Notes under the pieces: model-generated
Database searches by the model: none
Told to the model about the DNA's origin: nothing
What the model saw: the letters and a program-made list of their open reading frames with translations, nothing else
Shown here: in pieces, positions 7,101-54,842 of the stretch
Layout of the letters: each line of letters begins with the position of its first letter
Numbering within the stretch: position 1 is the stretch's first letter
Program-made: the position numbers and the translations under genes
From: an uncultured Verrucomicrobiota bacterium
GTDB taxonomy: Bacteria > Verrucomicrobiota > Verrucomicrobiia > Limisphaerales > UBA8199
Direction: 5' to 3'
Assembly: GCA_964446585.1 (NCBI GenBank)
Contig: CAYUPI010000005.1
Span: 12,593 to 76,592 of the forward strand
Length of the DNA: 64,000 nucleotides

Positions 7101-9003
7101 CACAGTTTTCCGAGATGGTCCCGCCCTGAGCAATGAAGCTGTCCGAATTGGTGGCGGGGGCAGGGGCGGAGGAACCAGCGCGGACTGCCACGTTCGGCGG
7201 ACAGGTGATGGTTGGCGGGGTCGTGTCGTTGACCGTGATGATCTGGTTGCAACTTTGACTATTGCTGCACAAATCCGATACCAGATACGTCCGAGTAATG
7301 ATGAATCTGCTGGGGCAGGTCTGATTGTTCGTCGCGTCGCTGGAAGCGACCGTCACTGGGTCGCCGCAATTTTCCGAGATGGCGCCGCCCTGGGCAATAA
7401 AGCCGGCCGAGTCGGTGGCCGGCGACGGCACGACCGAGGCACACTGCACGGTCACGTTTGTCGGGCAGGTAATTGTGGGCGTCGTCGTATCGTTGACTGT
7501 GATCGTCTGGTCGCACATTTGAGAGTTGCTGCACTGGTCGGTCACGGTGTAGGTGCGAGTGATGGTAAAGCGGCTGGGGCAGATCTGGTTGTTGGTCGCG
7601 TCGGTGGAACTGATTGTCACTCCGCCGCCGCAGTTTTCCGAGATGGTCCCGCCCTGGGCGATAAAGCCCGCGGAGTCGGTGGCCGGGGTTGGCACCGCCG
7701 AGGCGCATTGCACCGTAACATTCGTCGGACAGCTAATCGCGGGAGCCGTCGTGTCGTTGATCGTGATGGTCTGATCGCACATCTCAGCATTGCCGCAAGT
7801 GTCTGCCACCGTATAACTGCGCGTGATGGTGAAGCGGTTGGGACAGGTCTGGTTGATCGTCGCATCGGTGGAACTGACTGTCACTCCTCCGCCGCAGTTT
7901 TCCGAGATGGTCCCTCCCTGGGCGATAAAACCCGCGGAATCGGTCGCTGGTGCGGGTACAGCGGAGCCACACTGGACAGTGACGTTCGTCGGGCAGTTGA
8001 TTGCGGGCGCGGTCGTATCATTGACCGTGATGGTCTGGTTGCACGACTGGATATTGCCGCACAGATCCCTCACGGTATAGGTCCGGGTGATGGTGAAGCG
8101 GTTGGGGCAAGTCTGGTTGTTCGTGGCGTCGGCTGAATTGAACTGCAGCACTGAGACGGGGCAGTCGTCAGAGATCGTGCCCCCCTGGGCGATGAAACTC
8201 GTCGAATCGTTCGCCGCCGCCGGCAGGGCCGAGGCGCATTGCATGGTCACGTTCGTTGGGCAAGTGATCGCGAGAACAAATGGGGGCACCGTAATCGGCG
8301 TCGCGTCCAGCCGGACATTGTCCATATATATAGCCGCTGGAATGGTAGCATCGCTCCCGCTGGTGCCGGTCAAACGAATGATCAGCGGCGAACCGACCAA
8401 CGGGTGGTTGGGGGCAATCACATATTGGTTAACGGAATCGACAAAACTGTTCGCCGCGGGCGTTTGATGGTCGGTGACGGTCGGAGCCAGCAGCACTCCT
8501 CCCGCGAGCAAGTCAATTCTGTAATTGCCAAAAGTGAAATGCTTGTCCGCCCCTACCGCCACCGTGAGGGTGTACCGCCGGTTTCCCTCCAGGTTGCCGA
8601 GCGTTCCGGTGTTCGTGATCGAAGTGCTTGGAGTATTACGAAAAGTCAGTGCCTGGGCCCCGGCGGCTGGGGCGGGGAGCGACCCGGACATGGCCGCGCC
8701 GGTGAACTGAGATGCCGTCGGGTTAATCACCTCGTAATCGGTCAACGTCGAGTCGTAAATGGGGTTGCCCGTGGGTACCAATGTCCACCCCGGCACAGTG
8801 TGGGTAGTATCCCCGTCACCTAGTACGGGGAGCTCAAAACTAAAGTTGTCAATCGTGATCGGAGCGGCGTGCGCCACCTTGCCCAGCCCAAACCAAATCA
8901 GACACGAAGCAAGAATAGCAGCCGGGCAGAAAACTTTCCGGCAATTTGGCAGCTTCATCCGGAGCATTTCAGTTTTTCCCGGAAGGGATACATTCTGTCT
9001 CAA
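4111..9003 (-). CDS. Giant secreted repeat protein (adhesin/glycan-binding-like) with five Cys-rich ~88-aa Ig/HYR-like modules and a CBM6/35-like segment
   Basis: 1630-aa ORF with an N-terminal signal peptide (CPAAILASCLIWFGLGKVAHA). Five tandem modules follow the pattern CPTNVTVQC...FIAQGGTISENCGG...ITRTYTVxDxCGNxxxCxQxITVNDTTxP. A CBM6-like stretch reads VVLIEAEDYNYDSGNFQDN...GDWMNYTRTFPSGNYNVYLRAAS. The true start may be an internal Met (MLRMKL or MKLPNC). Confidence 0.85.
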   Translation of the reverse strand: MRQNVSLPGKTEMLRMKLPNCRKVFCPAAILASCLIWFGLGKVAHAAPITIDNFSFELPVLGDGDTTHTVPGWTLVPTGNPIYDSTLTDYEVINPTASQFTGAAMSGSLPAPAAGAQALTFRNTPSTSITNTGTLGNLEGNRRYTLTVAVGADKHFTFGNYRIDLLAGGVLLAPTVTDHQTPAANSFVDSVNQYVIAPNHPLVGSPLIIRLTGTSGSDATIPAAIYMDNVRLDATPITVPPFVLAITCPTNVTMQCASALPAAANDSTSFIAQGGTISDDCPVSVLQFNSADATNNQTCPNRFTITRTYTVRDLCGNIQSCNQTITVNDTTAPAINCPTNVTVQCGSAVPAPATDSAGFIAQGGTISENCGGGVTVSSTDATINQTCPNRFTITRSYTVADTCGNAEMCDQTITINDTTAPAISCPTNVTVQCASAVPTPATDSAGFIAQGGTISENCGGGVTISSTDATNNQICPSRFTITRTYTVTDQCSNSQMCDQTITVNDTTTPTITCPTNVTVQCASVVPSPATDSAGFIAQGGAISENCGDPVTVASSDATNNQTCPSRFIITRTYLVSDLCSNSQSCNQIITVNDTTPPTITCPPNVAVRAGSSAPAPATNSDSFIAQGGTISENCGGSVTVTSTDSPGSQSTTRRYRVTDMCGNFSTCDQLIFFQSPTVSQDFNSGPAAEAGWFHYSPATEGGQSPTWTFPDDGSGGFAYRMMGPPMNCNGLFNRGGSYRTEQYTDFFQAVDILHYASNSVDSLAIIGARITTPGALQTGGYYVAYSLGGPRARQQVMLPLEFSGEINVSEPDIYTGGAAFISQFSPSKQFRMSFLAANDVFTAELYDRTDLLEPIARIRFRNGPTATAAHPSGENLLGWFNLDFNSLCDFTFDNYYAGADPATPIGFPGTPQVVNVTPRPQTLFYSPPQNGSNITFMATTLNLNAVNTNALKLFLNGDDVSDQLVISDTSNPFSSSFFVRYTGVLATNQIYQGQIIALDGSGLGTTNNWVFDTFTASGVVLIEAEDYNYDSGNFQDNPPVSGLDDTTTADTQTSPGNQVNGNGIGYYDLAGTPDVDFHAVFPRLFRTQQYRSSDLVSTAQGLNFTGDTPRPDHVAVNVPDYYVSFMNPGDWMNYTRTFPSGNYNVYLRAASQGRQDVRFDSVTSGSTTSNQTTSIRGQFLVPNTGSSSRYRYVPLSDAAGNIQTLGISGPATFRLNANQVRSGRVAGARLTDLELNYLLFVPTTASPSSGAWIASASPSAGSDNFAPDSAVNIAIRTGYTGLDCPNSIQLRFDGSNVTGSATIACTSSEGAGATVSYRPPGLLLPNSVHTLSVVFADGSGAQSNYWTFTVDPSIPLLDAGDALASVSDSSFTVQVQKGPNDDSAGCPGVGSFPNTIARAERQLAGELIDPSTGQPWPNEAAGTNSGFYTEPNAVNYESCGNSVGFIPGDTTYPGIVCDPNQSPPTHFAIAATIKLQLAQGVFRMGVNSDDQFKVTAGGPDGTNVYLGSSETFPGTRDDGQFDFAVATNGVYEFRLVQEQGSGGANCEWYWVNRTTGVRELVKPLTVELESSATIDGPYSFEPTALIDPSAKTITVPKSGNARFYRLRSTTALRLNLSRFSGDNVVLNYSQ
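6980..8290 (-). repeat. Five tandem ~264-bp coding repeats inside the giant protein gene
   Basis: Blocks recur on the plus strand with a ~264-nt period, for example ccgccgcagttttccgagatggtcccgccctgggcgataaagcccgcggagtcggt. By eye the units are roughly four-fifths identical (not computed). Off-frame ORFs such as 7553..7774, 7823..8080 and 8087..8467 repeat MMVKRLGQVWL for the same reason. Confidence 0.85.
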
Positions 9004-19751: not shown

Positions 19752-19796
19752 GCATTTGCGCGTTCGGAGCGCGGTTGCAAAATCACTTTAAGTGTC

Positions 19797-19816
19797 GGAG
19801 CCGACGTAAGGAGGCT
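19797..19816. repeat. Single arm of the GCCGACGTAAGGAGGCT hairpin repeat family
   Basis: The sequence ggagccgacgtaaggaggct matches the arms of the hairpins at 49151..49244 and 55421..55502. No partner arm is adjacent. Confidence 0.6.
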
Positions 19817-19826
19817 TTGATCATTT

Positions 19827-21161
19827 ATGGATTTTGGAATCTCCAATCAGAACCTCCGTACGGGCGTGTTGCCCAAATCTCTTGAGGGTAGGGCGCGCTG
19901 TCCACAGCGCGCCGCGGTTCTGTCGCACACTGCGAGTTTGTTTGGTTTCTGCGGTATTCGTCGCCGCGCTGTCTTCAGCGCGCCAGAGCGTTGGGGTTTC
20001 GCGCCATTTCGGCAACGCGCCCGTACGACGGCTCGAACCGTTTCTCGGTTTTCATCATCGTCTCACCGTGCCGGAGTCGGACGAAGGCAGGTCATTCGTA
20101 ATTCAGCTTTGGCTGTCTTCCTTGCTGTGCAGGGGTCATCACTGAGCGCTCAGGTTGAGCCGGTCTTTCCCGGCGAACATTGGGAGTTCCGGCAACCTGA
20201 GTCAGTGGGTTTGTCCCAAGCGAAACTGGATGCGTTGCGTGACCCTGTTGGCGGGCGAGGTTGCGTGGTTCGGTATGGTTACGTGGCGTATAGCTGGGGC
20301 GACCCCGCCCGGAGCGCCGATATCGCCTCTGCCGTCAAGCCGGTCATTTCCACGCTCCTATTCTTTGCCGTTCAGGAGGGAAAATTGACGAGCGTGGACG
20401 CACCAGTTTCCGAATTCGAGCCGCGTCTCAAGACGCTCAACCAGGGCAAAGATGTTTCGATCACCTGGCGGCATTTCGCCTCGCAGACTTCCGGGTATGG
20501 CTTGTCTGAGCCGCCCGGCGTAGCCTACGCCTACAACGATTTCGCGCTGGCGTTGTACTACGACACGCTGACTCAAAAGGTTTTCACGACGAATGGCACC
20601 GAGGTCCTTCGCTCGCGATTAGCCGAGCCTCTGAAATTCGAAGACCATTATTCCTTCAGCCCGTTCAGGCGGCCGGATCGCGATGGCCGGCTGGCGATTT
20701 CCACGCGCGATTTGGCGCGCTTCGGCTTGCTTTATTTAAGGCAGGGAAAATGGCGCGGCCAACAGCTCTTGCAGACAAATTTCGTGCGAATGGCCCTTCA
20801 CAGTCCGGTGCTGCCGAATACTCCGCGCACTGGTGGTAATGAGGCCGAGATGCTGCCTGGACAGCGAACGCTGGGCGGGACACGCAACATAACCGGAGCC
20901 GGCCCGGGCTATTACAGCTTCAACTGGTGGCTCAACGGCACGAACTCCGCTGGTCGGCGTTTATTCGCGCATGCGCCGCCGGACGCTTACGCCGCTGCGG
21001 GACATGGCGGCATTCGCGTCCTGTTCATCGTTCCGAGCCTCGAGCTTATTGTATGCTGGAATGACGGCCAAATCGAGGACTTTGATGAATCCCCGGGAAA
21101 TCCCAATACCAGGATGAACCAGGCCACGCACCTGGCTTGTGAAGCAGTGACGGGGCCCTGA
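19827..21161 (+). CDS. Beta-lactamase-family serine hydrolase (secreted); start codon uncertain
   Basis: The ORF translation shows a signal-like segment (NSALAVFLAVQGSSLSAQ) and an SxxK motif (ASAVKPVISTLLF) within a beta-lactamase-related fold context. The first ~70 codons of the ORF are read through the MITE at 19856..20027. The real start is probably downstream, but I found no obvious ATG/GTG just upstream of the signal peptide. Confidence 0.65.
   Translation: MDFGISNQNLRTGVLPKSLEGRARCPQRAAVLSHTASLFGFCGIRRRAVFSAPERWGFAPFRQRARTTARTVSRFSSSSHRAGVGRRQVIRNSALAVFLAVQGSSLSAQVEPVFPGEHWEFRQPESVGLSQAKLDALRDPVGGRGCVVRYGYVAYSWGDPARSADIASAVKPVISTLLFFAVQEGKLTSVDAPVSEFEPRLKTLNQGKDVSITWRHFASQTSGYGLSEPPGVAYAYNDFALALYYDTLTQKVFTTNGTEVLRSRLAEPLKFEDHYSFSPFRRPDRDGRLAISTRDLARFGLLYLRQGKWRGQQLLQTNFVRMALHSPVLPNTPRTGGNEAEMLPGQRTLGGTRNITGAGPGYYSFNWWLNGTNSAGRRLFAHAPPDAYAAAGHGGIRVLFIVPSLELIVCWNDGQIEDFDESPGNPNTRMNQATHLACEAVTGP
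19856..20027. repeat. MITE-like element (family with GGCGCGCTGTCCNCAGCGCGCC internal hairpins)
   Basis: The terminal inverted repeats are ccgtacgggcgtgttgcccaaat (19856-19878) and atttcggcaacgcgcccgtacg (20006-20027). There are two internal hairpins, gcgcgctgtccacagcgcgc and gccgcgctgtcttcagcgcgc. Related copies lie at 22138..22374 and 38112..38146. Confidence 0.75.
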
Positions 21162-21196: not shown

Positions 21197-22036
21197 TCAG
21201 TAATTCCATTTGTGGTACACTTCATAAACATCCACGCGACCGCCGGGGAAGTAGCTGTTCGCACCCAACAGGAAGCGGCGCGTCGCGCGGTCGTAACTTA
21301 AGATCGAAGGTTGCGCCGCCTGATTTGGATCATACACCTCGAAAGAAATCTCTTTTTCGTTCTGAGTTGCACCAAAAATTATCACACCGTGATTGATTGT
21401 AAGTTGCGGGAAACGAACCAGGTGGACGACGACGGGCGGGTCGCGATTCAAATCGGTCAATATCTGCTGGGCCATGTTTGCCTGGTGGCGGCGGCTGAAG
21501 GGGAAAATCATTCGCCAGTGACCTCGCTGAAAGTAACTCTGCCAGCCTCCGCCACAATTGGCCTTTAGCAGTCTCTCGTGTTCCCGGCTGAAAGAGCGCA
21601 AATCAGAGTAACCAGGAATAAGGATCTTCTCAGCTTCGGGCAGAGCTTTGCGAGGGCTGGACGCAACCACGCGCCGAATGAGCCGGCGGTACCTGGCTTC
21701 ATCAGGCTTTGGCTGGGCCGGGTCAAAGTTCGCGTTGAGAAAGAACTGTCGCGTCGAGCGCGCCAGAACAAAGCAATGCTGGGCATAATCCGGTTTTGGA
21801 TCGCGGTCATGGGTCGTCCAATTGCCATTGGTATCGTACTGGTAAACCCAAACGAGTTCGTTCGAGAAAGAAAATGTGTCTCTTTGGAAGTCGAACGGTC
21901 TGGCAGTGGCGAGCTCCTGGCGGTGGGTGGTGGCACAACCCGAAACGAGCGCGAGGATCAGGAACAGTAGAATCGAGCCGGAAGCGGAGGAATCTCTGGA
22001 AGTCCGCTGGGAATTTTGCCAAGGGTCCGGTGGCAA
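21197..22036 (-). CDS. Hypothetical lipoprotein with a putative Cys-His-Asp (papain/transglutaminase-like) signature
   Basis: ORF 21197..22276. A TTG at 22036 gives MPPDPWQNSQRTSRDSSASGSILLFLILALVSGC, which ends in a lipobox. The longer ORF N-terminus reads through the MITE at 22138..22374. Candidate triad residues are AQHCFVLARS, INHGVIIFG and VYDPN. Confidence 0.6.
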   Translation of the reverse strand: MPPDPWQNSQRTSRDSSASGSILLFLILALVSGCATTHRQELATARPFDFQRDTFSFSNELVWVYQYDTNGNWTTHDRDPKPDYAQHCFVLARSTRQFFLNANFDPAQPKPDEARYRRLIRRVVASSPRKALPEAEKILIPGYSDLRSFSREHERLLKANCGGGWQSYFQRGHWRMIFPFSRRHQANMAQQILTDLNRDPPVVVHLVRFPQLTINHGVIIFGATQNEKEISFEVYDPNQAAQPSILSYDRATRRFLLGANSYFPGGRVDVYEVYHKWNY

Positions 22037-22137
22037 AGTCGGCGTAAGGCATTGTAGGAGACGACGTGAGGAGTCTCCGATTATGGCGTTTCGACCAACG
22101 TTGGTGTCGTTTGCCAACAAATTGATTAGAGTCTCCT

Positions 22138-22374
22138 CACGGGCGTGTTGTCCAGATCCTATGAGGGTAGGGCGCGCTGTCCCCAGCGCGCAGCGATGCG
22201 GTCCCAACCTGCGATTTTGCTCGGAAACTGGGGTGTTCGTTGGCGCGCTGGATACATATATCAGAAAATCTGTCATTTTCGCGAAGATTTATTGTGCAAA
22301 CGCAGATGGGCGACGCGCTGGGACAGCGCGCCCTACCTTTTGGACCTCGCGCCATTTGGGCAACACGCCCTCAC
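22138..22374. repeat. MITE-like element, same family as 19856..20027
   Basis: The left arm is cacgggcgtgttgtccagatcctatgagggtagggcgcgctgtccccagcgcgc. The right arm is gcgacgcgctgggacagcgcgccctaccttttggacctcgcgccatttgggcaacacgccctcac, which is its near reverse complement. It lies in the divergent intergenic region between the lipoprotein and AMP-ligase genes. Confidence 0.8.
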
Positions 22375-22498
22375 TTCGTCTCCTACAGTCACAAACTGGC
22401 GACCTCTGGGCAGACTTTCTCACTGGCCTTGCAATTGGCCGTTGGCAATTCATGTTACGGCTTGCCGCAGAAACTATCCGCGCGCAACCTGACTGACA

Positions 22499-23761
22499 AT
22501 GTTGTACCAGCGTTGGCGTCAGACCGCGAGCGCCTGCCCGGAGCGGATCGCGTTGCGGGACGCTGTCGGGGGAGGCACTTGGACGTTCGCCGAGCTTATG
22601 GCTGTCAGCGAAAATCAACCGCGCGAACAGCAACCGCTCGCCTTTCCACGCGGGCCCTCCCCCGAGTTAATCTTTGCCGTGCTCCGGGCCTGGCGCGATC
22701 ATCAGGTACTTTGCCCGCTTGAAGCAGGGCAGGCAATTCCCGCCATTTCGGGGCCGTTGCCGGCCGGCGTGGTCCACTTGAAAACAACATCCGCTACGAC
22801 CGGCTCATCCCGGCTGGTCGCCTTCACCGCGGCGCAGCTCATCGCCGATGCTGAAAACATCGTTGCCACGATGGGATTGAAACCGGATTGGCCGAACCTG
22901 GGCGTTATTTCGCTGGCTCATTCGTATGGGTTTTCCAACCTGGTTTTGCCGCTCCTGCTGCACGGCATTCCACTGATCCTGGCGGGCTCAGGGCTGCCGG
23001 AAGCGATCCGGCGCGCAGCGGTGCTGGTGCCGACGATAACGCTAGCGGGCGTGCCGGCGCTGTGGAGTCGCTGGCACGAGGCGGAGGCCATCCCTGGCAA
23101 TGTGCGGCTGGCTATTTCCGCGGGCGCCCCGCTGCCGCTGGGCCTGGAACAGAGCGTTTTCGGCGACCGCGGTTTGAAGATTCATAATTTCTATGGCAGC
23201 AGCGAATGTGGAGGCATCGCCTACGACGCAACTTCACAGCCGCGCTCGGATGGCGCTTGCGTCGGGACGCCAATGCGCAATGTCAACCTAACTGTGAACG
23301 CCGGCGGTTGCCTGGAAGTTCGTGGTTCGGCTGTGGGGCAAACTTACTGGCCGGAACCAAGCGACAGCCTGCGTGACGGAATTTTTCGCACCAGCGATCT
23401 GGCCGAAATTTCCGAAGGCAACGTTTACCTGCGCGGCCGCGCGAGCGACCAAATCAATGTCGCGGGACGAAAAGTTGCCGCAGAGACTATCGAGAATGCG
23501 CTGGTGGCTCACCCACACGTGCGGGACTGCGTAGCCTTCGGTGTGCCTAGCGCGGATGCCGCGCGCGGCGAGACAATAGTCGCGTGCCTTGCCGTGGATG
23601 CGCGTCTCAATCGCGAAGTTTTAAAACAATACCTGATGGAAAGACTTCCCGCGTGGCAGGTGCCGCGCGAGTGGTGGTTTGTGGATTCGCTGGCAGCCAA
23701 TCAACGAGGCAAACTTTCGCGCGCGGAGTGGCGGAGGCGGTACCTGGACTCGGTGAAGTAA
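22499..23761 (+). CDS. AMP-dependent synthetase/ligase (short acyl/aryl-adenylating enzyme, ApeH/XanA2-like position)
   Basis: 420 aa with adenylation core motifs: LKTTSATTGSSRLV (A3), YGSSECG (A5), RTSDLAE (A7), GRASDQINVAGRKVAAETIE (A8) and QRGKLSR (A10). Confidence 0.9.
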   Translation: MLYQRWRQTASACPERIALRDAVGGGTWTFAELMAVSENQPREQQPLAFPRGPSPELIFAVLRAWRDHQVLCPLEAGQAIPAISGPLPAGVVHLKTTSATTGSSRLVAFTAAQLIADAENIVATMGLKPDWPNLGVISLAHSYGFSNLVLPLLLHGIPLILAGSGLPEAIRRAAVLVPTITLAGVPALWSRWHEAEAIPGNVRLAISAGAPLPLGLEQSVFGDRGLKIHNFYGSSECGGIAYDATSQPRSDGACVGTPMRNVNLTVNAGGCLEVRGSAVGQTYWPEPSDSLRDGIFRTSDLAEISEGNVYLRGRASDQINVAGRKVAAETIENALVAHPHVRDCVAFGVPSADAARGETIVACLAVDARLNREVLKQYLMERLPAWQVPREWWFVDSLAANQRGKLSRAEWRRRYLDSVK

Positions 23762-23895: not shown

Positions 23896-23981
23896 CGTCA
23901 GGCCGTCAGAACGTTGTAGCCACAGCCAGTTGTGAAACTCGAAGCCGTCAGGCAATCCGTCAGGAGCCGTCAGGTCGTCAG
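23896..23981. repeat. Cluster of six CGTCAG(G) short direct repeats
   Basis: CGTCAG occurs at 23896, 23904, 23946, 23958, 23968 and 23976. The last four are spaced 12, 10 and 8 nt apart within gccgtcaggcaatccgtcaggagccgtcaggtcgtcagagg. Confidence 0.6.
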
Positions 23982-24054
23982 AGGCAGTGGGACAAAGGTG
24001 AGGGTTGCGAGCTAATTGGAGACGACCGATTAAGATTTACAACCAGGATTACGA

Positions 24055-24378
24055 TTAAAACTCGGAGGCAATACCATTGACTGACACCTTTTCGGAGATG
24101 ATCTGCATGGCGCGAATCGTCGGCGCGCCGCTCACCGTGCCCGCCGGCAACGTCGCGCGCATCAGGTCGTAATTGGTTTTGCCCGCCGCCAGCCGGCCCT
24201 CGACGCTCGACACGATGTACATGATGTGGCTGTAACGCTCGATGATCATCAGGTCGCGCACCTGCACGCTGCCGAAATCGCACACGCGCCCGATGTCGTT
24301 GCGCGCGAGGTCCACGAACATGACGTGCTCGGCCCGCTGCGACGGCGCGACAGCGCGGCGAGCGCGTTCCTTCGGGTC
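24055..24378 (-). pseudogene. Internal fragment of a chorismate-binding enzyme (TrpE/PabB/isochorismate synthase family)
   Basis: The translation reads [87 protein letters not shown]. This matches the conserved catalytic core of the family, but roughly 300 N-terminal and 100 C-terminal residues are missing. Homology stops exactly where the REP copy at 24067..24088 begins (tail [11 protein letters not shown]). Confidence 0.75.
24067..24088 (-). repeat. REP copy (GGTGTCAGTCAATGGTATTGCC family)
   Basis: The plus strand reads ggcaataccattgactgacacc, the reverse complement of the copy at 26549..26570. It forms the 3' boundary of the trpE-like fragment. Confidence 0.85.
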
Positions 24379-24679
24379 AAACCGGTTTTGCTTTTGGGAA
24401 AAGCGTTTTCCGCTCTGGCAACACTTCCAATCGAACGCGCCACGACGTTCAATTCAAGACCGGTTCACGCGTCACGCGTGCAACCGAAGTCCCTTTTTCA
24501 AAGTGCGCGGGCCGTGCAGTCGAACCCGAAACGACAGTGGGCGAGGGCGAAAAATGGCTTGTTATTACCAGCCAAACTTGTAATATGAAGCTCGTCCTCA
24601 TCATTTCTGGTCCTTTGGCCGTGAACCTCTAATCATGACGACGCCCGTGTCGCTCGGTGTTCGCACGGGCAATGCAACC

Positions 24680-26382
24680 ATGAAAGCGAAACTCTATTGT
24701 CTGTTCATCGGGCTGGCGTTGATCGCCGGCAAAACTTCGGCGCAGACCTTCACCACCCTGGTCCATTTCCCGACCAGCCAGGCCTATCCTTCCGGCAATT
24801 TGCGGGTGGCTCCTGCCGCAAGTGGCTCGACGAAGCTGTATGGGACAGTGTCGGGTCCTGGTTATAGTTCAGCAGTGTTCTTTATCAGCACCAATGGCAA
24901 CTTTGGGGAGATCAGCGGAGCCCCGCCGATTGGTCACACTTTGTTCGACTCACTGTCCCCTCCAGTGGGGGGGATGGACACAGCTTAATAGGGGGACCCT
25001 ATGGTTTGGCCGCATTCGAATTTGGTCGCGGAGGTGTCTATGTCGTCGCCAGCGAGGCCTCGTCGTTTTACCCGGATACCGTTCTGCTTCCGACTAGTGC
25101 TCCGCATTCCCCTGTCAGCTTAGCTAGCTGCGGCAGCGATTGCATGACTATCACTTTTCAGACTTACACGTTTTGGGTCCAACCTGGTGGCGGTGCTAAT
25201 TCTGGCGCTATCGGTTCATCATGGGGCTTCGAGGTTACGAATGGTTTTGCCATAGTTCATTACTTTTCGCCGACGAATGGTCCAAGCGGCACGAATAGCG
25301 ATGGGGCCAATCCCGTGGGCAGACCGATTGTGGAAAGTGGTGCGTCTGATGGTAAGCTTTATGGGACGGCCAGGGACGGTGGCGCGACGGGCAACGGCAC
25401 GGTGTATTTCGCCAACGTCCTCATTGCGACTCCTCCCACCAACAACATCTTCGTCAACCTGCACAGTTTCTCCGCCGTTTCCGGGCCGGATGGCACCAAC
25501 AGCGATGGCGCGCATCCCATCGTCAACCTGACCCGGGCCGGTTACACGGGCACCGATGGCTCTTATGCTAGGGATCTGGGCGACACGCTCTATGGGATGA
25601 CATCGGCCGGCGGCGCCTACGGTCAGGGGACGATTTTCAGCATGAAGACGGACGGTTCCGGCTTCAAGACCTTGCACAGTTTCGCCAAGCCCGCCGATGC
25701 CACCATCTACTTTCCGGAACTCTATCCGGGAGGACCACCTTATACTTTGGTCTATGGCTCCACCAACAGTGATGGACTGGCCCAAAAATCCGGCCTGACC
25801 GTGGTCGGCGACACGCTCTACGGCACGTCCAGCGCCGGCGGCGCTTACGGGAACGGCAATGTGTTCGGCCTGAAGACCGACGGCTCGCGCTTCACCGTGC
25901 TGCATGATTTCTCGCTGACCATGAACACAAACGCCTTGGACCAGGGTAATCCGAATATCTTTGGCGTGGATTTGCAGACCAACTTGGATGGAAAGATGCC
26001 CACCGGCAGTATTACCTATTACTTGGGAGTCCTGTATGGAACAGCGTCACATGGCGGGACGAATTTCTATGACTACAACCAAGACATCGGGCAACGCGCG
26101 AGCCAGGGCACGGCTTACAAAATCACGATACCGCCGTCGCTTAGCGCAGCGATCCCGCCATCGCTTACCTTTACGCGCTCCGGCACGAACCTGGTCATGA
26201 ATTTCCCTGGCGGCAGTCTCGAGATGACAACTGCTTTGTATGGCGCAACTTCTCTCAATGGTTCCTGGAGCAACCTATCCACCAATTCTCCTTACACGAA
26301 CGCCATGAGCGGTGCCGCCCAATTTTTCCGAGTGGGGACGACCATAAACTTGAGCAGCACTCACTACAACAGCGGGCAATGA
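24680..26382 (+). pseudogene. GloVer (Gloeo_Verruco) repeat secreted protein, split by a frameshift at a G7 tract
   Basis: ORF 24635..24988 carries the signal peptide (MKAKLYCLFIGLALIAGKTSAQ) and stops at 24986-24988. ORF 25006..26382 lies in a different frame, lacks a signal peptide and carries GloVer-type repeats (DGKLYGTARDGGATGNGTVYFA, DTLYGMTSAGGAYGQGTIFSMKTDGSGFKTLHSF, DTLYGTSSAGGAYGNGNVFGLKTDGSRFTVLHDF). The second frame stays open back through the G7 run at 24967-24973. It could also be two separate genes. Confidence 0.65.
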
Positions 26383-26548
26383 TCCAGACGCACAGCCGTC
26401 GAGCAGGAGCAAGTGTCACCCATTAGGACGGGTGTCAATAAGTAAAAAAATTGCCGTGCCCAATTCTTCGTTTGGGTCGCTCTTCTCTGCCTGAATCAGT
26501 TCTGCCAGGCACTAGAAGCCATCTTGCTCTGTTGAAACCATTCAAAAA

Positions 26549-26570
26549 GGTGTCAGTCAATGGTATTGCC
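26549..26570 (+). repeat. REP copy (GGTGTCAGTCAATGGTATTGCC), 3' flank of the RAYT gene
   Basis: The sequence ggtgtcagtcaatggtattgcc ends 5 nt before the stop-codon end of the transposase gene. It has an internal hairpin (CAAT-GGT-ATTG). Confidence 0.85.
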
Positions 26571-26574
26571 ATCT

Positions 26575-27537
26575 TTATAGATCAAGGCTGGCCTGATTGT
26601 CCTCCGGCGAAGTTTTGCCCTGCCAATACAGTAGGTGCGTCACATTGCCCCGCGTTCCCATGTTTAGCCTCCGCGCAATCCAAGACACGGTAACGGTAGT
26701 TTCTTTTCGAAGCTTGCTTGCGAGAGCCACTTTGAATTGATCCCCTTTTGGTCGCGCCGCAAGGTGGTGCTCCGTCAAATGTCTTCGCTTCAACTCGCCA
26801 CGGATCAACCGCTCAGCTTTGGCCTCAGCCGACTCCTGTAGTTCCGCACCATAATGCCACAAGCCGCGCTTTTCCGAAACTTGCGCCAATAATTCATCCC
26901 GAAATTCCTCACTGCCCAGACACCAGCCCCGCCGCAGTGGCTTAAATTCCTCCTCTGACTCGCCTTGCCGCCGCGCCTCGAGTTGTGCGGCCAATTGTCG
27001 CCGACCCGCTACGCTGTCCTTGGGAATGCCCCATTCTCCCAGGCAACGGTCCACCCGCAGCCACGCCGGCCGACGCGACGGTTCTTGCAGGTACAGCGGA
27101 TAACTGCTCCAGCGGTAACTGTCCAGCGGCGCTTCCGGGCCCAGCAGATGCGCGCGCACCGGGTTCAAATGCACGTAGTCGCAAACGCTTTTGAGGTAAC
27201 CGTTGCCACTGCCATCCACGACCAGCGCTTTGTAGCGGCCGCTGAACAGATGGCCAAAGAGCTTGTGACGCCGGTTGAACCGGCGAGTGTATTCTCCCGG
27301 CAACCATTTCATTCCGGCGACCAGGTTGGCCTGAGGGGTCTCCACGACCAGATGAAAATGGTTCTGCATCAAACAGAACGCGTGGACCAGCCAGGCGGTC
27401 TTGGAGCACGTTTCACCCAACGTCCTCAGGAAGCACTCGTGGTCCACGTCATCGCGAAAAATTGGCTCGCGGTGATCGCCCCGATTCATGACGTGATAAA
27501 TCGCCCCTGGGTATTGAATGCGGAGCTTCCGAGCCAT
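26575..27537 (-). CDS. IS200-like HUH/Y1 transposase of the REP-associated (RAYT) type, with an extended C-terminus
   Basis: 320 aa. It starts MARKLRIQYPGAIYHVMNRGDHREPIF, has the HUH motif (MQNHFHLVVETP) and the catalytic Tyr motif (CDYVHLNPVRAHLL). Inverted copies of one REP flank it. The C-terminal ~100 aa (TVSWIARRLNMGTRGNVTHLLYW) may be an HTH domain. Confidence 0.85.
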   Translation of the reverse strand: MARKLRIQYPGAIYHVMNRGDHREPIFRDDVDHECFLRTLGETCSKTAWLVHAFCLMQNHFHLVVETPQANLVAGMKWLPGEYTRRFNRRHKLFGHLFSGRYKALVVDGSGNGYLKSVCDYVHLNPVRAHLLGPEAPLDSYRWSSYPLYLQEPSRRPAWLRVDRCLGEWGIPKDSVAGRRQLAAQLEARRQGESEEEFKPLRRGWCLGSEEFRDELLAQVSEKRGLWHYGAELQESAEAKAERLIRGELKRRHLTEHHLAARPKGDQFKVALASKLRKETTVTVSWIARRLNMGTRGNVTHLLYWQGKTSPEDNQASLDL

Positions 27538-27572
27538 ACAGCCAAAACGTCGCCGGAGCGCGAGAATGTGTC

Positions 27573-27592
27573 AATACCATTGACTGACACCT
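27573..27592 (-). repeat. REP copy in inverted orientation, 5' flank of the RAYT gene
   Basis: The sequence caataccattgactgacacc sits within gtgtcaataccattgactgacac, a near-perfect hairpin (GTCAAT/ATTGAC). It lies 36 nt upstream of the RAYT start codon. Confidence 0.85.
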
Positions 27593-27615
27593 TCTCGGTG
27601 CATGATAGCTCCGGG

Positions 27616-28047
27616 TTACGATGCGCCGCCGAGCGTCAGTTCGGCCTGCATCACGAGCTGACCATCGACGGAAGCTGTCGCGGTGGCGTTGACGAGATTT
27701 GACAGCCGGGCCGTGATACGCGCCTCGAGGCGGATGACCTGACCGGGTCGGGCGGTCCCTAGGAATTTTACGGCGCGCAGCGCGGTGAGTTTGAGGTGTT
27801 CCAGGGGCTTCATACGAGGATCGGATTGAGCCACCGTCCCGGCCAGTTGTGCGGCGGCTTCGACCAACAGTACGCCGGGGAACAGGGCATGGCCGGGAAA
27901 GTGGCCGCGCAAAAAGTGTTCATCGCCCCGGACAGTGTATTCCCCGGCGCCGCTCTGGCCCGGTACCAGGCTAACGAGTCGATCCAGAAAGCGGAACTCG
28001 GGGCCATGTGGGAGGCTGCGGAGAGCAGTGGTCAAGGAATTAGTCAC
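27616..28047 (-). CDS. FabA/FabZ-like 3-hydroxyacyl-ACP dehydratase (hotdog fold; ApeI/ApeP-like)
   Basis: 143 aa. The sequence FRFLDRLVSLVPGQSGAGEYTVRGDEHFLRGHFPGHALFPGVLLVEAAAQLAG contains the catalytic His context of FabZ-type dehydratases. Confidence 0.85.
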   Translation of the reverse strand: MTNSLTTALRSLPHGPEFRFLDRLVSLVPGQSGAGEYTVRGDEHFLRGHFPGHALFPGVLLVEAAAQLAGTVAQSDPRMKPLEHLKLTALRAVKFLGTARPGQVIRLEARITARLSNLVNATATASVDGQLVMQAELTLGGAS

Positions 28048-28073
28048 GGGATGCAGGGTGAAGCGTATCGTGC

Positions 28074-28793
28074 TCAGGGGCGGCCCGGCCGTGAGGGTCT
28101 GAATTGTTTGAGCGGCTCAATGACTTTATATTCGGCAGGGATATCCGGGTTGAACAGCGATTCTTCCAGCTTCGGATTTAAGACAGGATTTATGAAGTCG
28201 TTCCGCATGGTCGAGCCGTCGGCGAACTGCAATTCGTTGGCCCGAAGCGAAAAATCTCGAATGTCAAATGCGACCTTGATTTCCGGCATCATGCGGCGTG
28301 CGCCGGGTGATCTGGGTTGCAAGTCGAGCTCGCAGGTTCCGTTCGTCAATGTCTGGGAGAGAACTTTCATGCGCGACGCCATCTCCGCCTCACTGCGCGG
28401 GAAGCCGGCCTCGAGCAGCGCCAGCGCGTCGCTCCATTGGCCGGTTTGTTCCCCGGTCAGTGGATACCGCTCGACACGCTTGAGCCGGGGATAAATCACA
28501 AGCATCTCGCGGGGCGCGCGCACCGCGATGGTCTGTGGAGGGTTGCCCAACTCCCAGCGGAAGCGGTTGGGAGCGGCGAACCAGACGTGACCGGTGGCGG
28601 TCAGCGGTTGGGTCAGCGACTTAAGCGTGCGGGTTTGAATGAACTCCGAGGACCAGGTTTGGATATTCGTTTGCGCTGCCAGCCAGGAACTGACGAGCGC
28701 GTTCGTATCGGCGGCTCGGCCTGAAGGTCTAAAGGCCACTAAACAGAACAAACCCAGCGACAGCGCTTTAAAATGGATCGCCTGGCTCCACAT
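28074..28793 (-). CDS. LolA-like outer-membrane lipoprotein carrier family protein (ApeL-like)
   Basis: ORF 28074..28970. The ATG at 28793 gives MWSQAIHFKALSLGLFCLVAFRPSGRAAD (signal peptide). LolA-like motifs follow: TWSSEFIQTRTLKSLTQPLTATGHVWFAAPNRFRWEL. The longer ORF would overlap the upstream gene. Confidence 0.75.
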   Translation of the reverse strand: MWSQAIHFKALSLGLFCLVAFRPSGRAADTNALVSSWLAAQTNIQTWSSEFIQTRTLKSLTQPLTATGHVWFAAPNRFRWELGNPPQTIAVRAPREMLVIYPRLKRVERYPLTGEQTGQWSDALALLEAGFPRSEAEMASRMKVLSQTLTNGTCELDLQPRSPGARRMMPEIKVAFDIRDFSLRANELQFADGSTMRNDFINPVLNPKLEESLFNPDIPAEYKVIEPLKQFRPSRPGRP

Positions 28794-28836
28794 GGTTCGT
28801 TCTATGAATAACCCTTTTCCCAACTTGCGAAAAGCA

Positions 28837-31800
28837 TCATTCGGCGGGCCAGATCGGGACGAACTGATACCACTGATCGAGGTGCTGACGAATGAGCGGC
28901 TCGAACGCGCGCAGGATGTCCTGGGCGAGCTGCTGGCGGGCCTGGCGATCGCGCAGGACGGCGCGGTCATAAGGGATCGCCGGCAAAACGTGAGCCGCGT
29001 ACGTCCGGGACGTCCGGGGCAGACACACGGGCAATAAAACGCACCCGGAGGCGCGGGCCAACTCAGCCGCCGCGATTGAGGCGTCGAAGCGTCTGCCGAA
29101 AAGCCTCACGCTGATCGGCGCCGTTGGCGGGGGACGATCCACCAGCAATGCGACCGTGGCGCCCCCTTCAAGGCGTTTGATGATCTGCAAAAACGCGAAT
29201 GGATCTTCACCCATCACAAGTGTCTCGACATTCCACCGTTGTCGCGCGACCTGGCGGAGCCGCGTAAAAGCCTCGGTCGGTTCCGGCAGCGTAATGACGT
29301 GCAGCGTCACGCCCCGACGGGCGAGCCACGGCACGCCAAATTCCCAATTGCCCAGATGGGCTGACAGCAACAAGACGCCGCGCTTTTGGCTGCGCGCCGC
29401 CTCAAAATGCTCCCAGCCCGTATTCTCACCCAACAGATCCTCGATGGGCAGTCCGGCCTCGTAGCGCCAGAGATCGACCAGCTTGACTGCAAATTGTTGA
29501 AACAGGTTGCGAGCACTTCGCCGGGCATGGTCAACATCACCGCCGCAGACAGGTAGAAAGTTTTGGATGACAATTTCACGCCGGCGCCTGGCGAGAAGCC
29601 AATAAAGATGCGCCAAAAACTGACCGAGGGCAGCGCAAAGTCTGGATGGTAAAACGCGCGCCAGCCAGAGCCCGAGGCGCCAGAGCTCGAAGCGGTAGAG
29701 CGTCGAAGGGGCCGGGGGGCGAGGGGCGAGGGGCGAGGGGCGAGGGGCGAAATCCAAGCGGCCATCGGGTCCAACGGGTCCAACGTAGGAGGGAGCCATC
29801 TTTTCACCACGTGCTGCTCGCGCGTGGCTCCGGTGCCACCAGACTGGCAGCAGAAAAATGGAGATGAGCATGTTTGCGCCGATGCCGACGGCGCAGACTC
29901 GGCCCAGGCTCCCCATGCCGGCATTGGTCGAGAAAGCCAGCGAGCCGAACCCGGCACAGGCGGTTCCGCCACAAAGCAGCAGCGCGCGACCCACAGAACG
30001 GTAGGCCATCTGCAAATCTCCCAGATGCCGGCGCAGGGCCAACTGCATGAAGATGCTGTAATCCACGCCCGTGCCAAGGATCAGCGGCACCGCCATTAGA
30101 TTAAGCAGGTTCCAGGACCAGCCCGCCAGCCGCATGACGGTAAGCAAACAGAGTCCGCTTAATGCAAGGACAGCGAGGCTGAGCAGAACTTCGGCCAGCC
30201 GCCGAAATGCCAGCCCGAGCGAAAGCAGAACCAGACAGACCATCGGCGCGAGGACCAGCCACATGTTGGTCTTGACGCGCGAGAAGATTGCGCCGCCGAG
30301 CAATTCCCAGCCCGAGAGCCACGCACCTTGCCGAAGCAATTCGGATTGGAGAATCGACAGACGTGATTCGTTTTCCCGCCCAGCATCCGTTAACCGCTCG
30401 ATTAGCCCGAGCGCAAACTGATTTGTCGCGCCACGTGCAGTTGCTTTTTCAAGTATCCATTGCACCACTTGATTCGACGGCAAGAAAACGCCAGACGTCT
30501 GACTGGCCTCGCGCCAGGTGTCGAGCATTTGTTCAGTAAGACCCAGTGCATTCTCCGTAAGTCCATTGGCCAGCGCGGCCTGTCTCAAGAGGCCGCGTTC
30601 GGCGACCAAGTGTCGAGCGCCGGCAAGATTCGCGGCCTGAAAATCCGGCCGTGGCCAAAGAGCGGTCGGCAGAGCAAAAGCGGTGATAAGATTGTTGGAT
30701 ACAGCGCCCTTGAGCACGAGTTCGACCGCGTCGAGGTGGTGTGCGACCTCGTCTTCGTTTCGGCCGCCGATAATAAGCCAAGCTGGGTCCCGGCCCTGGT
30801 TGAGCTCCTTCTTGATCTCATCCAGCGCGCCATACGCCAGGCTGTCGCGCGGGCGCAGAGAGTTCGCCGTCGGATCCACCAGGGGCAAACCGCGCAGCAG
30901 AACCAAGGTGGCGAGAATGAGTAAGGAAGCGGTAACGACAAAGACCAGCCGCGTCCGGCCGCGGCTAACGACAGTGCTCGAGACTGGCGCTTGGCTGCTC
31001 GCCTGTTCTGGCTGCCAGGATGCCCTCAGAGGCTCCTGCATGATCTTTTGTTCTCTTCTCTCGGGAAACAGCGGCGGGAGGAATTCGAAGATCATGATGC
31101 AAGCGGAAAGCCCAACGCCGAGCCCGACGAGCGTTCCAAGCTGGCCGAGACCGGGCAAGCCACCGAAATTGAGCACTAGAAACGCGCAGATGGTGGTGAC
31201 CGCCGCCCAAAAAATGCTTGGCGCAATCTCCGCCCGGATCTCGGGGATGCTCAGGTCCGGCTGGGCCAGCGCCTCCTGGTAGTGCACGACCGCATAGTCC
31301 ACCGCCAACCCCAGCAGAATCGCGGCAAAACCCATGCTCACGACATTGATTGTGCGAAAGATCAGCCCGCCCAGTGCCAGCGTGCTGCCCAGGATAAGCG
31401 CCAGCAGCGTCAGCAGCCAGAACATCGGTTTCAGGCGACGGTGAGCCAGCCAGAACAGACAGGCGATGATGAGCGCCGTGCCACCGACCGAGTTTCGAAC
31501 ATCGTGCTGCATTCCGCTGGCGACCTCAGCCACAAAGGCAGGACGTCCGGTATATCCGACCGCGACACTGGCCGGCGGTTGAACCTTTTTGATCTCTTCA
31601 AGCCATTGGTCGCACTCGCGGTAAGTGGGCAGGTCGCGGGCAGCCTTCACGTAAAGCACCCGGAACGTGCCGTCAGTTGAACTAAAAGCTTCCTGGCCCT
31701 GGGTGGAGCTCAGGCCGGGAGCTGCAGCAGCAATCTCTTCCGGCAGACGCGTCAGGCCGAAGGGATCGTATTGCAGCCGGGCGATCTCCTCGGGAGACAA

Positions 31801-32232
31801 CGTAGTCGCCAGTTGCTCGCGCGCATCGGCGATTACCGCCGGCAGCTTTTCCGGAGCGAGGCGATTGGTGAGCTGCTGGAAAAACGCTGGAGGCTGATTG
31901 AGCCACAGATAAGCCAGCAGCGCTCCGACCTGGCCAGGATGTTCGAGCCACGGCGGCTCCCAGGCAACACTGGCGACGAGATTAGTCTGCTCGCGCAAGC
32001 GTTCGGCAAGAGTGCGAGCCTCGTTCTCGGCTTGTTCCGCATCGGCCGCCCGCAATGTGATCAGCAATTCGCGCGCATTGGCAAAATGCTGCTGAAACAG
32101 CTTCAGCCCTTGCACGACCGGCAGATCGCCCGGAAGCAGATTAAAGACTTCGACATCGAACCGCAGGCGCGCCAGGCCGAGTGTTATCGGCAGGAGCAAC
32201 AGCAGCCATAACCAGCGTCCGGGGTGCTTCAT
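28837..32232 (-). CDS. Fusion protein: MMPL/RND-superfamily exporter (N-terminal ~820 aa) plus LpxL/HtrB-type lysophospholipid acyltransferase (C-terminal ~290 aa)
   Basis: 1131 aa. The N-terminus (MKHPGRWLWLLLLLPITLGLARLRFDVEVFNLLPGDLP) and two 6-TM bundles are typical of MMPL proteins. The C-terminus carries the acyltransferase motif LLLSAHLGNWEF plus ALLVDRPP. A Pro/Ala-rich linker (DFAPRPSPLAPRPPAPS) joins the two parts. Confidence 0.85.
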   Translation of the reverse strand: MKHPGRWLWLLLLLPITLGLARLRFDVEVFNLLPGDLPVVQGLKLFQQHFANARELLITLRAADAEQAENEARTLAERLREQTNLVASVAWEPPWLEHPGQVGALLAYLWLNQPPAFFQQLTNRLAPEKLPAVIADAREQLATTLSPEEIARLQYDPFGLTRLPEEIAAAAPGLSSTQGQEAFSSTDGTFRVLYVKAARDLPTYRECDQWLEEIKKVQPPASVAVGYTGRPAFVAEVASGMQHDVRNSVGGTALIIACLFWLAHRRLKPMFWLLTLLALILGSTLALGGLIFRTINVVSMGFAAILLGLAVDYAVVHYQEALAQPDLSIPEIRAEIAPSIFWAAVTTICAFLVLNFGGLPGLGQLGTLVGLGVGLSACIMIFEFLPPLFPERREQKIMQEPLRASWQPEQASSQAPVSSTVVSRGRTRLVFVVTASLLILATLVLLRGLPLVDPTANSLRPRDSLAYGALDEIKKELNQGRDPAWLIIGGRNEDEVAHHLDAVELVLKGAVSNNLITAFALPTALWPRPDFQAANLAGARHLVAERGLLRQAALANGLTENALGLTEQMLDTWREASQTSGVFLPSNQVVQWILEKATARGATNQFALGLIERLTDAGRENESRLSILQSELLRQGAWLSGWELLGGAIFSRVKTNMWLVLAPMVCLVLLSLGLAFRRLAEVLLSLAVLALSGLCLLTVMRLAGWSWNLLNLMAVPLILGTGVDYSIFMQLALRRHLGDLQMAYRSVGRALLLCGGTACAGFGSLAFSTNAGMGSLGRVCAVGIGANMLISIFLLPVWWHRSHARAARGEKMAPSYVGPVGPDGRLDFAPRPSPLAPRPPAPSTLYRFELWRLGLWLARVLPSRLCAALGQFLAHLYWLLARRRREIVIQNFLPVCGGDVDHARRSARNLFQQFAVKLVDLWRYEAGLPIEDLLGENTGWEHFEAARSQKRGVLLLSAHLGNWEFGVPWLARRGVTLHVITLPEPTEAFTRLRQVARQRWNVETLVMGEDPFAFLQIIKRLEGGATVALLVDRPPPTAPISVRLFGRRFDASIAAAELARASGCVLLPVCLPRTSRTYAAHVLPAIPYDRAVLRDRQARQQLAQDILRAFEPLIRQHLDQWYQFVPIWPAE
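29721..29748. repeat. Heptanucleotide tandem repeat (GAGGGGC)x4 inside the MMPL-acyltransferase linker
   Basis: Four perfect gaggggc units lie at 29721-29748, preceded by ggggccggggggc. They encode APRPSPLAPRP on the minus strand. The unit length is not a multiple of 3. Confidence 0.9.
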
Positions 32233-38052: not shown

Positions 38053-38111
38053 TCGGTCGATTCGGACAGCCGCTGCAGACATCCTTTCGCGGCTAGTGGC
38101 CTTCCTGCCCT

Positions 38112-38146
38112 TTGGACTGCGCGCCCTTTAGGCAACACGCCCTGAC
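38112..38146. repeat. Solo arm of the MITE family seen at 19856 and 22138
   Basis: The sequence ttggactgcgcgccctttaggcaacacgccctgac can be compared with ttggacctcgcgccatttgggcaacacgccctcac at 22340-22374. Confidence 0.7.
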
Positions 38147-38265
38147 TTCAGGGGCTGCGAACAATGAAATGTGCAGATTCGCGACGATTTCCCATGGCAC
38201 GGTTCATGCGCTCTCGCTGCGCCATGGTCTGGATATGACCAGACCGGTGTTGCGGGATAACAAGT

Positions 38266-49150: not shown

Positions 49151-49244
49151 TGTAGGAGCCGACGTTGGAAGGCTCACTTCAAATGCGGAGTGAGGAGTGA
49201 GGAGTGCGGAATTAGATCAGAGCCTCCTGACGTCCGCTGCTACA
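49151..49244. repeat. Hairpin repeat (GTAGNAGCCGACGTNGGAGGCTCA arms) between convergent genes; possible bidirectional terminator
   Basis: The arms are tgtaggagccgacgttggaaggctca (49151-49176) and gagcctcctgacgtccgctgctaca (49220-49244). It is the same family as 55421..55502. Confidence 0.75.
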
Positions 49245-54677: not shown

Positions 54678-54842
54678 ATCTTCTGTCTGCCCGGCAGAGG
54701 CCTCGCAGTAGGCCGGAATGCAGAAGACGTAGCCGCCGGAGTGAGGAGGCAGGTTTCTGTTGGCAATACAGTGCCGACCCCCTTCAACTACAACGAGGGC
54801 TCTAGATTCTCCAGCGCCTTCTGCGTACGATGCTGCGCGGCC

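Follow-up and report, generated by a model that had tools for sequence, protein, structure and literature searches.

The stretch of DNA considered here (64,000 nt from an uncultured Verrucomicrobiota bacterium, contig CAYUPI010000005.1; the whole of it is referred to as the window) carries, at positions 26545-27593, a gene for a HUH/Y1 transposase between two inverted copies of a short repeat, which raises the question of what these repeats are: repetitive extragenic palindromes (REPs) with their REP-associated tyrosine transposase (RAYT), as proposed in a reading made from the sequence alone, or the ends of a mobile unit of another kind. Judged by the features of its sequence, the locus is very probably a TIRtron, with a TIRYT gene (TnpAY1 subclass 2.1, RAYT Group 1) bounded by terminal inverted repeats (TIRs) of ~25 bp. 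The REP/RAYT reading is partly supported, being right on the class of the enzyme and wrong on the repeats, and the best-supported view of the element is that of a further example of the known, biochemically uncharacterised TIRtron kind.

The unit of 1,049 bp is made up of the following features (window coordinates):

26545-26571, plus strand: right-end terminal inverted repeat (RE), AAAAGGTGTCAGTCAATGGTATTGCCA, placed by the 22-mer match and the pairing of inverted arms; this terminus is kept in homologous elements.
26575-27537, minus strand: intact TIRYT gene of 320 amino acids (aa), identified by its open reading frame (ORF), Pfam, motif alignment, AlphaFold/Foldseek and BLASTP to published TIRYTs.
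27569-27593, minus strand: left-end terminal inverted repeat (LE), AAGGTGTCAGTCAATGGTATTGACA in the minus-strand reading, placed by the 22-mer match and the pairing of inverted arms.
27546-27574, minus strand: putative sigma-70-type promoter within and beside the LE, predicted from conservation across homologous elements.

The two arms (27569-27593 and 26547-26571) are 96% complementary over 25 nt, with 4 nt between the RE repeat and the stop codon and 31 nt between the LE repeat and the ATG. The shared 22-mer, GGTGTCAGTCAATGGTATTGCC, is exact at 26549-26570 (plus strand) and in a third copy at 24067-24088 (minus strand), as previously noted, and has one mismatch (..TTGAC) at 27570-27591 (minus strand). 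For this last copy the sequence-only reading had given a reverse complement at 27573-27592; the copy is present, but its coordinates were 1-3 bases off, the exactly complementary part being 27572-27591. Three matches in the window compare with 0.00 expected from 100 dinucleotide-preserving shuffles, and the likeness among the three copies ends within a few bases of the core. The base composition around the element did not reveal a clear foreign island.

In the paper that described them, TIRYTs are RAYT-like genes lying between long terminal inverted repeats, an arrangement called a 'TIRtron', and many have the sequence GGGGWSAS in common (PMC3733652). They were equated by Quentin et al. 2018 (PMC6006769) with subclass 2.1 of the TnpAY1 transposases and with Bertels' RAYT Group 1, which was defined in Bertels et al. 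2017 (PMC5581495). Proteins of subclass 2.1 are long, contain the signatures NH[YF]H and Y[IV]HLNP and a serine (SS) motif, have a C-terminal extension with helix-turn-helix (HTH) or Bac_DnaA_C-like regions, and are encoded without REPs nearby (PMC6006769). The window protein contains all three signatures. Published TIRYT sequences were rebuilt from two alignment blocks of Additional file 5 of PMC6006769, and BLASTP of the window protein gave E=4e-30 with Hahella hch1378 (31% over 230 aa, running through the LGxxxF region) and E=5e-27 with Geobacter gbm2474 (35% over 147 aa), versus E=0.005 with the E. coli RAYT (b0228). The 'LGxxxF' motif of subclass 2.1 lies in the middle helical region of the window protein (aa 206-212), where GWCLGSEEF aligns with the corresponding region of hch1378, while the W[EQ]/FQ position of the subclass motif is occupied by FS (GHLFSGRY). 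The box of the RE, GGTGTCAG, agrees with the GGGGWSAS type at 7/8 positions, and it is because of the BLASTP matches to TIRYTs, together with this box and its counterpart GGGGTCAG in relatives, which conforms to GGGGWSAS, that we assign the element to the TIRtrons. The length of the protein had earlier been taken to suggest a distinct subgroup; such a subgroup is real, but it is the one already described as TIRYT/TIRtron, subclass 2.1 or Group 1.

By motif and by fold, the window protein is a RAYT-class HUH/Y1 enzyme, which bears out the class proposed by the sequence-only reading. The HUH motif NHFHLVV (aa 59-65, with HUH at aa 60-62) and the Tyr motif YVHLNPV (aa 121-127, including Tyr121 and Asn125), both of which that reading had recognised, were read from the ORF at 26575-27537 and are followed by WSS (aa 143-145); by its Y---NP context the protein belongs to class 2 (the RAYT class) of the TnpAY1 superfamily as laid out in PMC6006769. 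The sole Pfam match was Y1_Tnp (PF01797, aa 12-123, E=4e-13, 50 bits for a cut-off of 23), and the best NCBIfam match was REP_Tyr_transpos (NF047646) at 47.7 bits, below its cut-off of 80, with transpos_IS200 (NF033573) at 19.1 bits, below a cut-off of 55. An AlphaFold model built on 118 homologues (mean predicted local distance difference test score, pLDDT, of 76; core 80-97) was compared with the PDB using Foldseek, where the top match was E. coli TnpAREP with its REP hairpin (4ER8, 4er8_A; E=1e-6, template-modelling score TM(target) 0.66), followed in rank by the TnpA proteins of ISDra2, IS608 and IS200. Sequence searches of the PDB with the protein and with the 118-sequence profile gave no meaningful match, and the link to TnpAREP thus comes from fold comparison only. 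Across the 118 homologues the catalytic residues are invariant or nearly so. The last part of the protein (aa ~236-310) was modelled as five helices at a pLDDT of ~90, ending in a helix-turn-helix (TVTVSWIARRLNMGTRGNVTHLLY), in agreement with the earlier suggestion that the C-terminal extension may be a DNA-binding HTH, and in alignments the C-terminal third is conserved as strongly as the catalytic core.

To place the repeats, we compared the locus with 31 loci found by looking up exact proteins and by scanning genomes for the pattern, and with 80 more from a metagenome scan. About 70 homologous elements are built in the same way, as units of 1.0-1.07 kb that open at both ends with AAAGGGGTC(A/G)GT, and in ~80 homologous elements the box at both ends is GGGGTCAG or GGGGTCGG. 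The family-wide terminal box with which the repeats start is AAAGG(G/T)GTCAG. The A-run and T-run beside the box belong to the inverted repeat. Inside the box the ends vary (..GTCAATGGTATTG.., ..GTTCTTGATATTG.., ..GTCCTCACTATTGACAC, ..GTCCCGGCTATT.., ..GTTAATGATAATG..).

The two ends of the window-type variant differ systematically, with TTGACA in the left end and TTG(C/G/T)C in the right end. Wherever it falls relative to the repeat, TTGAC is located 28-32 nt upstream of the start codon in 68/83 unique left ends, and 65 of these 68 have NANNNT at a spacer of 16-18 nt, versus ~7 expected from shuffling. From this conservation we infer a sigma-70-type promoter in the left end, which in the window would consist of a -35 sequence TTGACA (27574-27569), a 17-nt spacer and a -10-like GACGTT (27551-27546), followed after 8 nt by the ATG at 27537. 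A simple consensus promoter scan did not call anything at the left end. The ATG is not preceded by a Shine-Dalgarno-like sequence, and the mRNA is therefore probably leaderless or near-leaderless.

The family to which the window protein belongs is very large: among 8,000 candidates scored, no fewer than 7,995 clusters (90% identity) had E<=0.001, and 1,587 clusters of a 50%-identity library reached E<=1e-30. The 120 relatives listed are ~303-358 aa long and 65-73% identical, except for one at 92% (P0001), and conservation runs along the whole length of the protein. Look-ups of the exact sequences of the window protein and of P0001 did not give any record. Relatives behave like insertion sequences (ISs). 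One contig (L054) contains two copies that are 99.9% identical over 1,023 bp, and the metagenome-assembled genome (MAG) CAYHFK01 has a full copy together with a 328-bp 5' fragment (98.5%) and other 98% end fragments; it also contains a 154-bp derivative and another copy that has diverged (69.5%). Three near-identical 245-bp internal-deletion derivatives, in which the two ends and some of the gene's 3' end are left, are present in the MAG OTE_64 beside a 288-bp derivative with the 5' end kept; a 112-bp derivative was also found among the relatives. Solo ends of 30-35 nt occur in L011, L013, L016, L024 and L029, and three complete right ends at a spacing of 37-39 nt in L031. The flanks of the deletion derivatives and copies did not share direct repeats; absence of a target duplication is expected for Y1 enzymes. 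Near-identical multiple copies with TIRs, which the sequence-only reading had named as an argument against RAYT and REPs, are therefore present in relatives (L054, the deletion derivatives and the 98% fragments). The contigs of many homologues measure ~1.0-1.3 kb and stop where the element does; as contigs in those collections are generally short and loci had been chosen for matching over the full length, this observation is not used as evidence for multiple copies.

Several observations weigh against the TIRtron assignment or parts of it. Position 3 of the box is T in the window instead of G (GGTG versus GGGG), the window holds a single copy of the gene with one extra terminus, and an empty site was not found, nor did a locus syntenic to the flanks turn up. 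One relative (P0088) has the same genomic context in six samples, which would fit a resident gene that does not move; as its six contigs were retrieved by exact protein identity, they may represent one species. The DnaA-like assignment of the C-terminal module is weak: its best full-length superpositions were with domain IV of DnaA (8btg_B, TM 0.65; 1j1v_A, 0.63; 3pvp_A, 0.60) at Foldseek E>1, hhalign of the C-terminal profile with E. coli and B. subtilis DnaA domain IV scored 11-14 versus up to 13 for shuffled controls, which is not significant, and a Pfam scan of 25 members one by one did not give an HTH or DnaA_C match, only a sub-threshold DUF6471. The five-helix HTH of the model may have a DnaA-domain-IV-like fold, which would fit the Bac_DnaA_C-like regions among the regions related to Bac_DnaA_C, HTH_23 and HTH_28 reported for subgroup 2.1.2 (PMC6006769). 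The enzymology of the group also has to be considered. We know of no TIRYT that has been characterised biochemically, so that the site of cleavage, the choice of strand and the role of the HTH are here inferred.

One alternative is that of a resident, immobile gene: a domesticated or fossil TIRYT, with repeats that are mainly operator or promoter sites bound by the HTH in autoregulation, and with the third copy as an inert relic. The single gene copy and the constant context of P0088 would be in line with this, as would the literature on subclass 2.1 and Group 1, in which copy numbers are low (1.9 per genome on average, with near-identical duplicates in 6.3%), and since the left end carries the putative promoter, conservation of the ends could be partly regulatory. 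However, the right end, without a promoter role, is conserved like the left end across proteins that are 62-73% identical, the catalytic residues have been retained, fully or nearly so, in the 118 homologues, and recent duplication and multi-copy deletion derivatives are seen in relatives. We consider such a resident gene unlikely.

For the TIRtron, traces of the transposition reaction may be present in the partial termini found directly outside the ends of relatives. Among 232 unique termini, 19 (~8%) have a partial terminus at an offset of 10-12 nt, versus 1-2 at other offsets. The partial copies consist of 1-3 tandem units of the outermost ~11 nt (AAAGGGGTCA), usually stopping right after GTC(A/G); the three terminus copies of the window are without such tandem partial termini. 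Examples are:

L031, 2385-2482
L023 (minus strand), near 3851
L063, near 298
L089, near 1949
L010, 4320-4363
L088, 100-270

The recurrent junction GTCA|AAAGG suggests breaking and rejoining just after GGGGTCA and at the outer boundary; in each end the cleavage point would probably follow immediately on GGGGTCA. Transposition could then proceed as follows. The left-end promoter (TTGACA-17-GACGTT), as predicted from its conservation in relatives, would be transcribed into a leaderless or near-leaderless mRNA. By analogy with the chemistry of IS608 and TnpAREP, the HUH/Y1 domain would cleave and rejoin single-stranded DNA via a 5'-phosphotyrosine at Tyr121, with a metal held by His60, His62 and Asn125, while the C-terminal five-helix HTH may anchor the enzyme on the terminal box. 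The whole 1.05-kb unit would move without target-site duplication, giving the MITE-like (miniature inverted-repeat transposable element) deletion derivatives, 5' fragments and solo ends that are seen in relatives only, and the break and join point, to go by the GTCA|AAAGG junctions of relatives, would probably lie just after the GGGGTCA of each end. A more far-reaching proposal, which we make tentatively and with considerable doubt, is that the Verrucomicrobiota-centred TIRtron clade is an active, autonomous IS family unrecognised by ISfinder-type classifications, in which an HUH/Y1 enzyme with a DnaA-domain-IV-like HTH, expressed from a leaderless left-end promoter, moves a TIR-bounded unit by breaking and joining after GGGGTCA, leaving iterated AAAGGGGTCA footprints. 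If true, this would represent a mode of transposition distinct from that of IS200/IS605, which is hairpin-guided with asymmetric ends, and from that of REP/RAYT systems.

The alternative of a classical REPtron, in which a single-copy, domesticated RAYT lies between its cognate REPs and disperses REP/REPIN singlets and doublets, with the third copy as one dispersed REP, is very unlikely. The inverted repeats around a Y1 gene do resemble such an arrangement, the best structural match is TnpAREP (4ER8), the best NCBIfam match is REP_Tyr_transpos, and solo termini of 30-35 nt and tandem clusters of termini (L031) exist in relatives. However, the REP_Tyr_transpos score falls well below its cut-off (47.7 versus 80 bits), BLASTP favours TIRYTs over the E. 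coli RAYT (4e-30 and 5e-27 versus 0.005), and the termini are without the GTAG/GTRG foot of REPs. Folded as single-stranded DNA, the end variants reach only -0.3 to -4.2 kcal/mol, mostly inside the range of shuffled sequences, and their pairings differ from one variant to the next. The two ends in the window fold at -4.2 kcal/mol (z -2.3) and -2.1 kcal/mol (z -1.5), and the predicted minimum-energy structure does not contain the CAAT/ATTG stem that the sequence-only reading had drawn for both copies. Two candidates for a conserved hairpin, the long-range stem GTGTCA/TGACAC and the inner stem GTCAAT/ATTGAC, were rejected as their pairing is missing in several terminus variants, and there was no covariation between the G or T at box position 3 and its putative partner base.

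The abundance of the repeat also appears to differ from that of REP families. The 22-mer, the frequency of which had been proposed as a check of the REP/RAYT reading, is not abundant, with 3 copies in the 64 kb of the window, and among 185,579 species genomes (a collection without the source genome, as none of its stretches had three matches) the exact motif GGKGTCAGTCAATGGTATTGMC occurs in 24 stretches, with <=8 copies in any genome. This low copy number is unlike that of REP families, and agrees with the TIR families that Di Nocera et al. called 'moderately abundant' (PMC3733652) and with the ~12 occurrences of the flanking 16-mer reported by Bertels for Group 1 (PMC5581495). The terminus had 0 matches in viral contigs, and plasmids yielded distant relatives only, <=40% identical and never full length. 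All but one of the records for the 24 stretches are labelled Verrucomicrobiota or as a Bifidobacterium/Bifidobacteriaceae MAG. MAGs labelled 'uncultured Bifidobacterium sp.' or 'Bifidobacteriaceae' carry the element in many contigs (CAYHFK01: L008, L012, L014, L017, L020, L021; CAZNOE01: L011), and we suspect that these labels are binning or naming errors.

Further arguments against a REPtron come from the relatives, in which near-identical full copies exist and the short derivatives contain pieces of the gene and therefore are deletion products of the whole unit, and from the window itself, where a separate family of GTAG-tagged doublets (6 copies) with its own RAYT-like gene fills the REP niche. 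Of the proposed RAYT bracketed by inverted REPs, what stands is the enzyme class and the cognate inverted repeats; the repeats are not REPs, lacking a GTAG/GTRG foot, a stable hairpin and a pairing that is conserved across the family, and they are few in the window. An IS200/IS605-type IS, with a Y1 transposase recognising subterminal hairpins on one strand, has next to no likelihood, for the Y1_Tnp match and the presence of ISDra2, IS608 and IS200 TnpA among the fold matches would fit it, but it is already contradicted by motif and end architecture, as the Tyr motif is Y---NP and not Y---Q, transpos_IS200 scores 19.1 bits for a cut-off of 55, the unit is closed off at its outermost positions by inverted repeats and not by same-strand subterminal hairpins, and there is no tnpB partner gene.

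The third copy of the terminus lies next to a gene fragment:

24067-24092, minus strand: solo terminus of the RE type (..TTGCC), matching 26545-26570 at 26/26 positions and in the opposite orientation to the RE, so that the two form inverted arms of 26 nt (100%).
24093-24327, minus strand: relic of a chorismate-binding (TrpE/PabB-like) gene, cut at both sides, found with Pfam PF00425.

The outer face of the solo terminus adjoins this relic of ~83 aa (PF00425 profile positions 119-195 of 257, E=4e-22), the homology of which ends exactly at the outer edge of the repeat, one of its two break points; the earlier observation that the third copy marks the truncation point of a gene fragment was therefore accurate. 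The inner face points to 24066 and lower coordinates, and no transposase remnant was found beside it. The simplest reading is that the third copy is a solo right end from an older insertion, followed by deletion, which truncated the chorismate-binding gene. On its inner side we also observed a tandem array of GAAGCCGTCAG-like units (23941-23974, period 12, 3.1 copies) and an isolated AAAGGTG (23993-23999) in the orientation expected for a left end; these may be the remains of a decayed deletion derivative, with matches short enough for chance.

The segment between the two identical inverted right ends measures 2.45 kb and contains two ORFs (24635-24988 and 25006-26382) without a Pfam match. 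On one side of the element and this segment is a gene for an AMP-binding enzyme (22499-23761, plus strand), and on the other (27616-32232, minus strand) are FabA-like dehydratase and LolA-like genes, followed by an ORF of 1,131 aa, a neighbourhood which may resemble lipid or aryl-polyene-type biosynthesis clusters. Elsewhere in the window, at 7090-8275, five tandem copies of a unit of ~264 nt (69-81% identical) probably represent a repeated protein domain in a large gene.

The second RAYT-like gene of the window, unrelated to the first, is a pseudogene at ~54741-55424 (plus strand), with the HUH motif DHLHLV, an in-frame TGA at 55071-55073 and the Tyr motif NYVLENP; when the TGA is read as Trp, almost the entire REP_Tyr_transpos model is matched by the residues from ~54858 on, at 48.7 bits. 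The pseudogene is directly followed by a perfect 31-nt inverted doublet starting with GTAG (55421-55451 and 55472-55502, -43.5 kcal/mol, z -12.8). Copies of the GTAG-tagged repeat, for which 0 would be expected in the window, are located at sites that include 49152-49243, 19794-19816 and 22054-22076. This GTAG family and the decayed RAYT look like a better candidate for the REP/REPIN system of the genome. A small repeated element, bounded by inverted GGGCGTGTTGCC(C/T)AAAT... and ...GGCAACRCGCCC, is present at 19862-20029 and 22141-22377, nested at the same position inside doublets of the GTAG repeat (19760-20050 and 22020-22400), with a partial third copy at 38104-38149, and it may be a MITE targeting REP doublets.

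TIRYTs and TIRtrons are common, subclass 2.1 being the second-largest TnpAY1 subclass and the present clade having thousands of metagenomic members. The locus, ordinary for its group, is compact and intact, its ends can be defined perfectly, and the comparative data predict a left-end promoter, cleavage at a candidate point after GGGGTCA, derivatives of the MITE type and the absence of target duplication. Of interest in the group are the handling of symmetric inverted-repeat ends by a single-strand HUH nuclease and the part played by the extra HTH. In annotation, the label of REP-mobilising RAYT should be avoided for such genes, and that of REP for the sequences flanking them.

When compared with known systems, the modelled C-terminal 75 residues superpose on domain IV of DnaA (PDB 1J1V, 3PVP, 8BTG; TM 0.60-0.65), but without significant sequence or profile similarity, and the terminal box is unlike a DnaA box (PMC6006769). 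With the IS200/IS605 elements IS608 and ISDra2 the element has in common the HUH/Y1 chemistry, the absence of target duplication and, probably, a short end-adjacent sequence that marks the cleavage point, while it differs in having Y---NP rather than Y---Q, terminal inverted repeats and no TnpB. REPtrons (E. coli TnpAREP YafM, PDB 4ER8, with REP/BIME; RAYT Groups 2/3 with REPINs) have the same catalytic fold and Y---NP motif, the gene is likewise bracketed by inverted repeats, and solo and clustered repeat copies exist in both; the element described here is without the GTAG foot, stable hairpin and high copy number, its protein is twice as long and includes an HTH module, and whole-unit copies and gene-containing deletion derivatives exist. 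From the published TIRtrons and TIRYTs it differs in the length of the protein (320 aa versus a subclass median of 238), in its origin from a Verrucomicrobiota-type clade that is missing from those surveys, and in its GGTG instead of GGGG box; to our knowledge, the TIRtron papers do not report near-identical duplicates with multi-copy deletion derivatives, a left-end promoter or iterated partial termini. The points of agreement are that long TIRs, and not REPs, enclose a RAYT-like HUH/Y1 gene and open with a GGGGWSAS-type box, that the protein has NH[YF]H, Y[IV]HLNP and WSS, with the core domain followed by an LGxxxF region and an extra HTH-type C-terminus, and that the copy number of the repeat is low to moderate, in what is the most IS-like of the RAYT groups.

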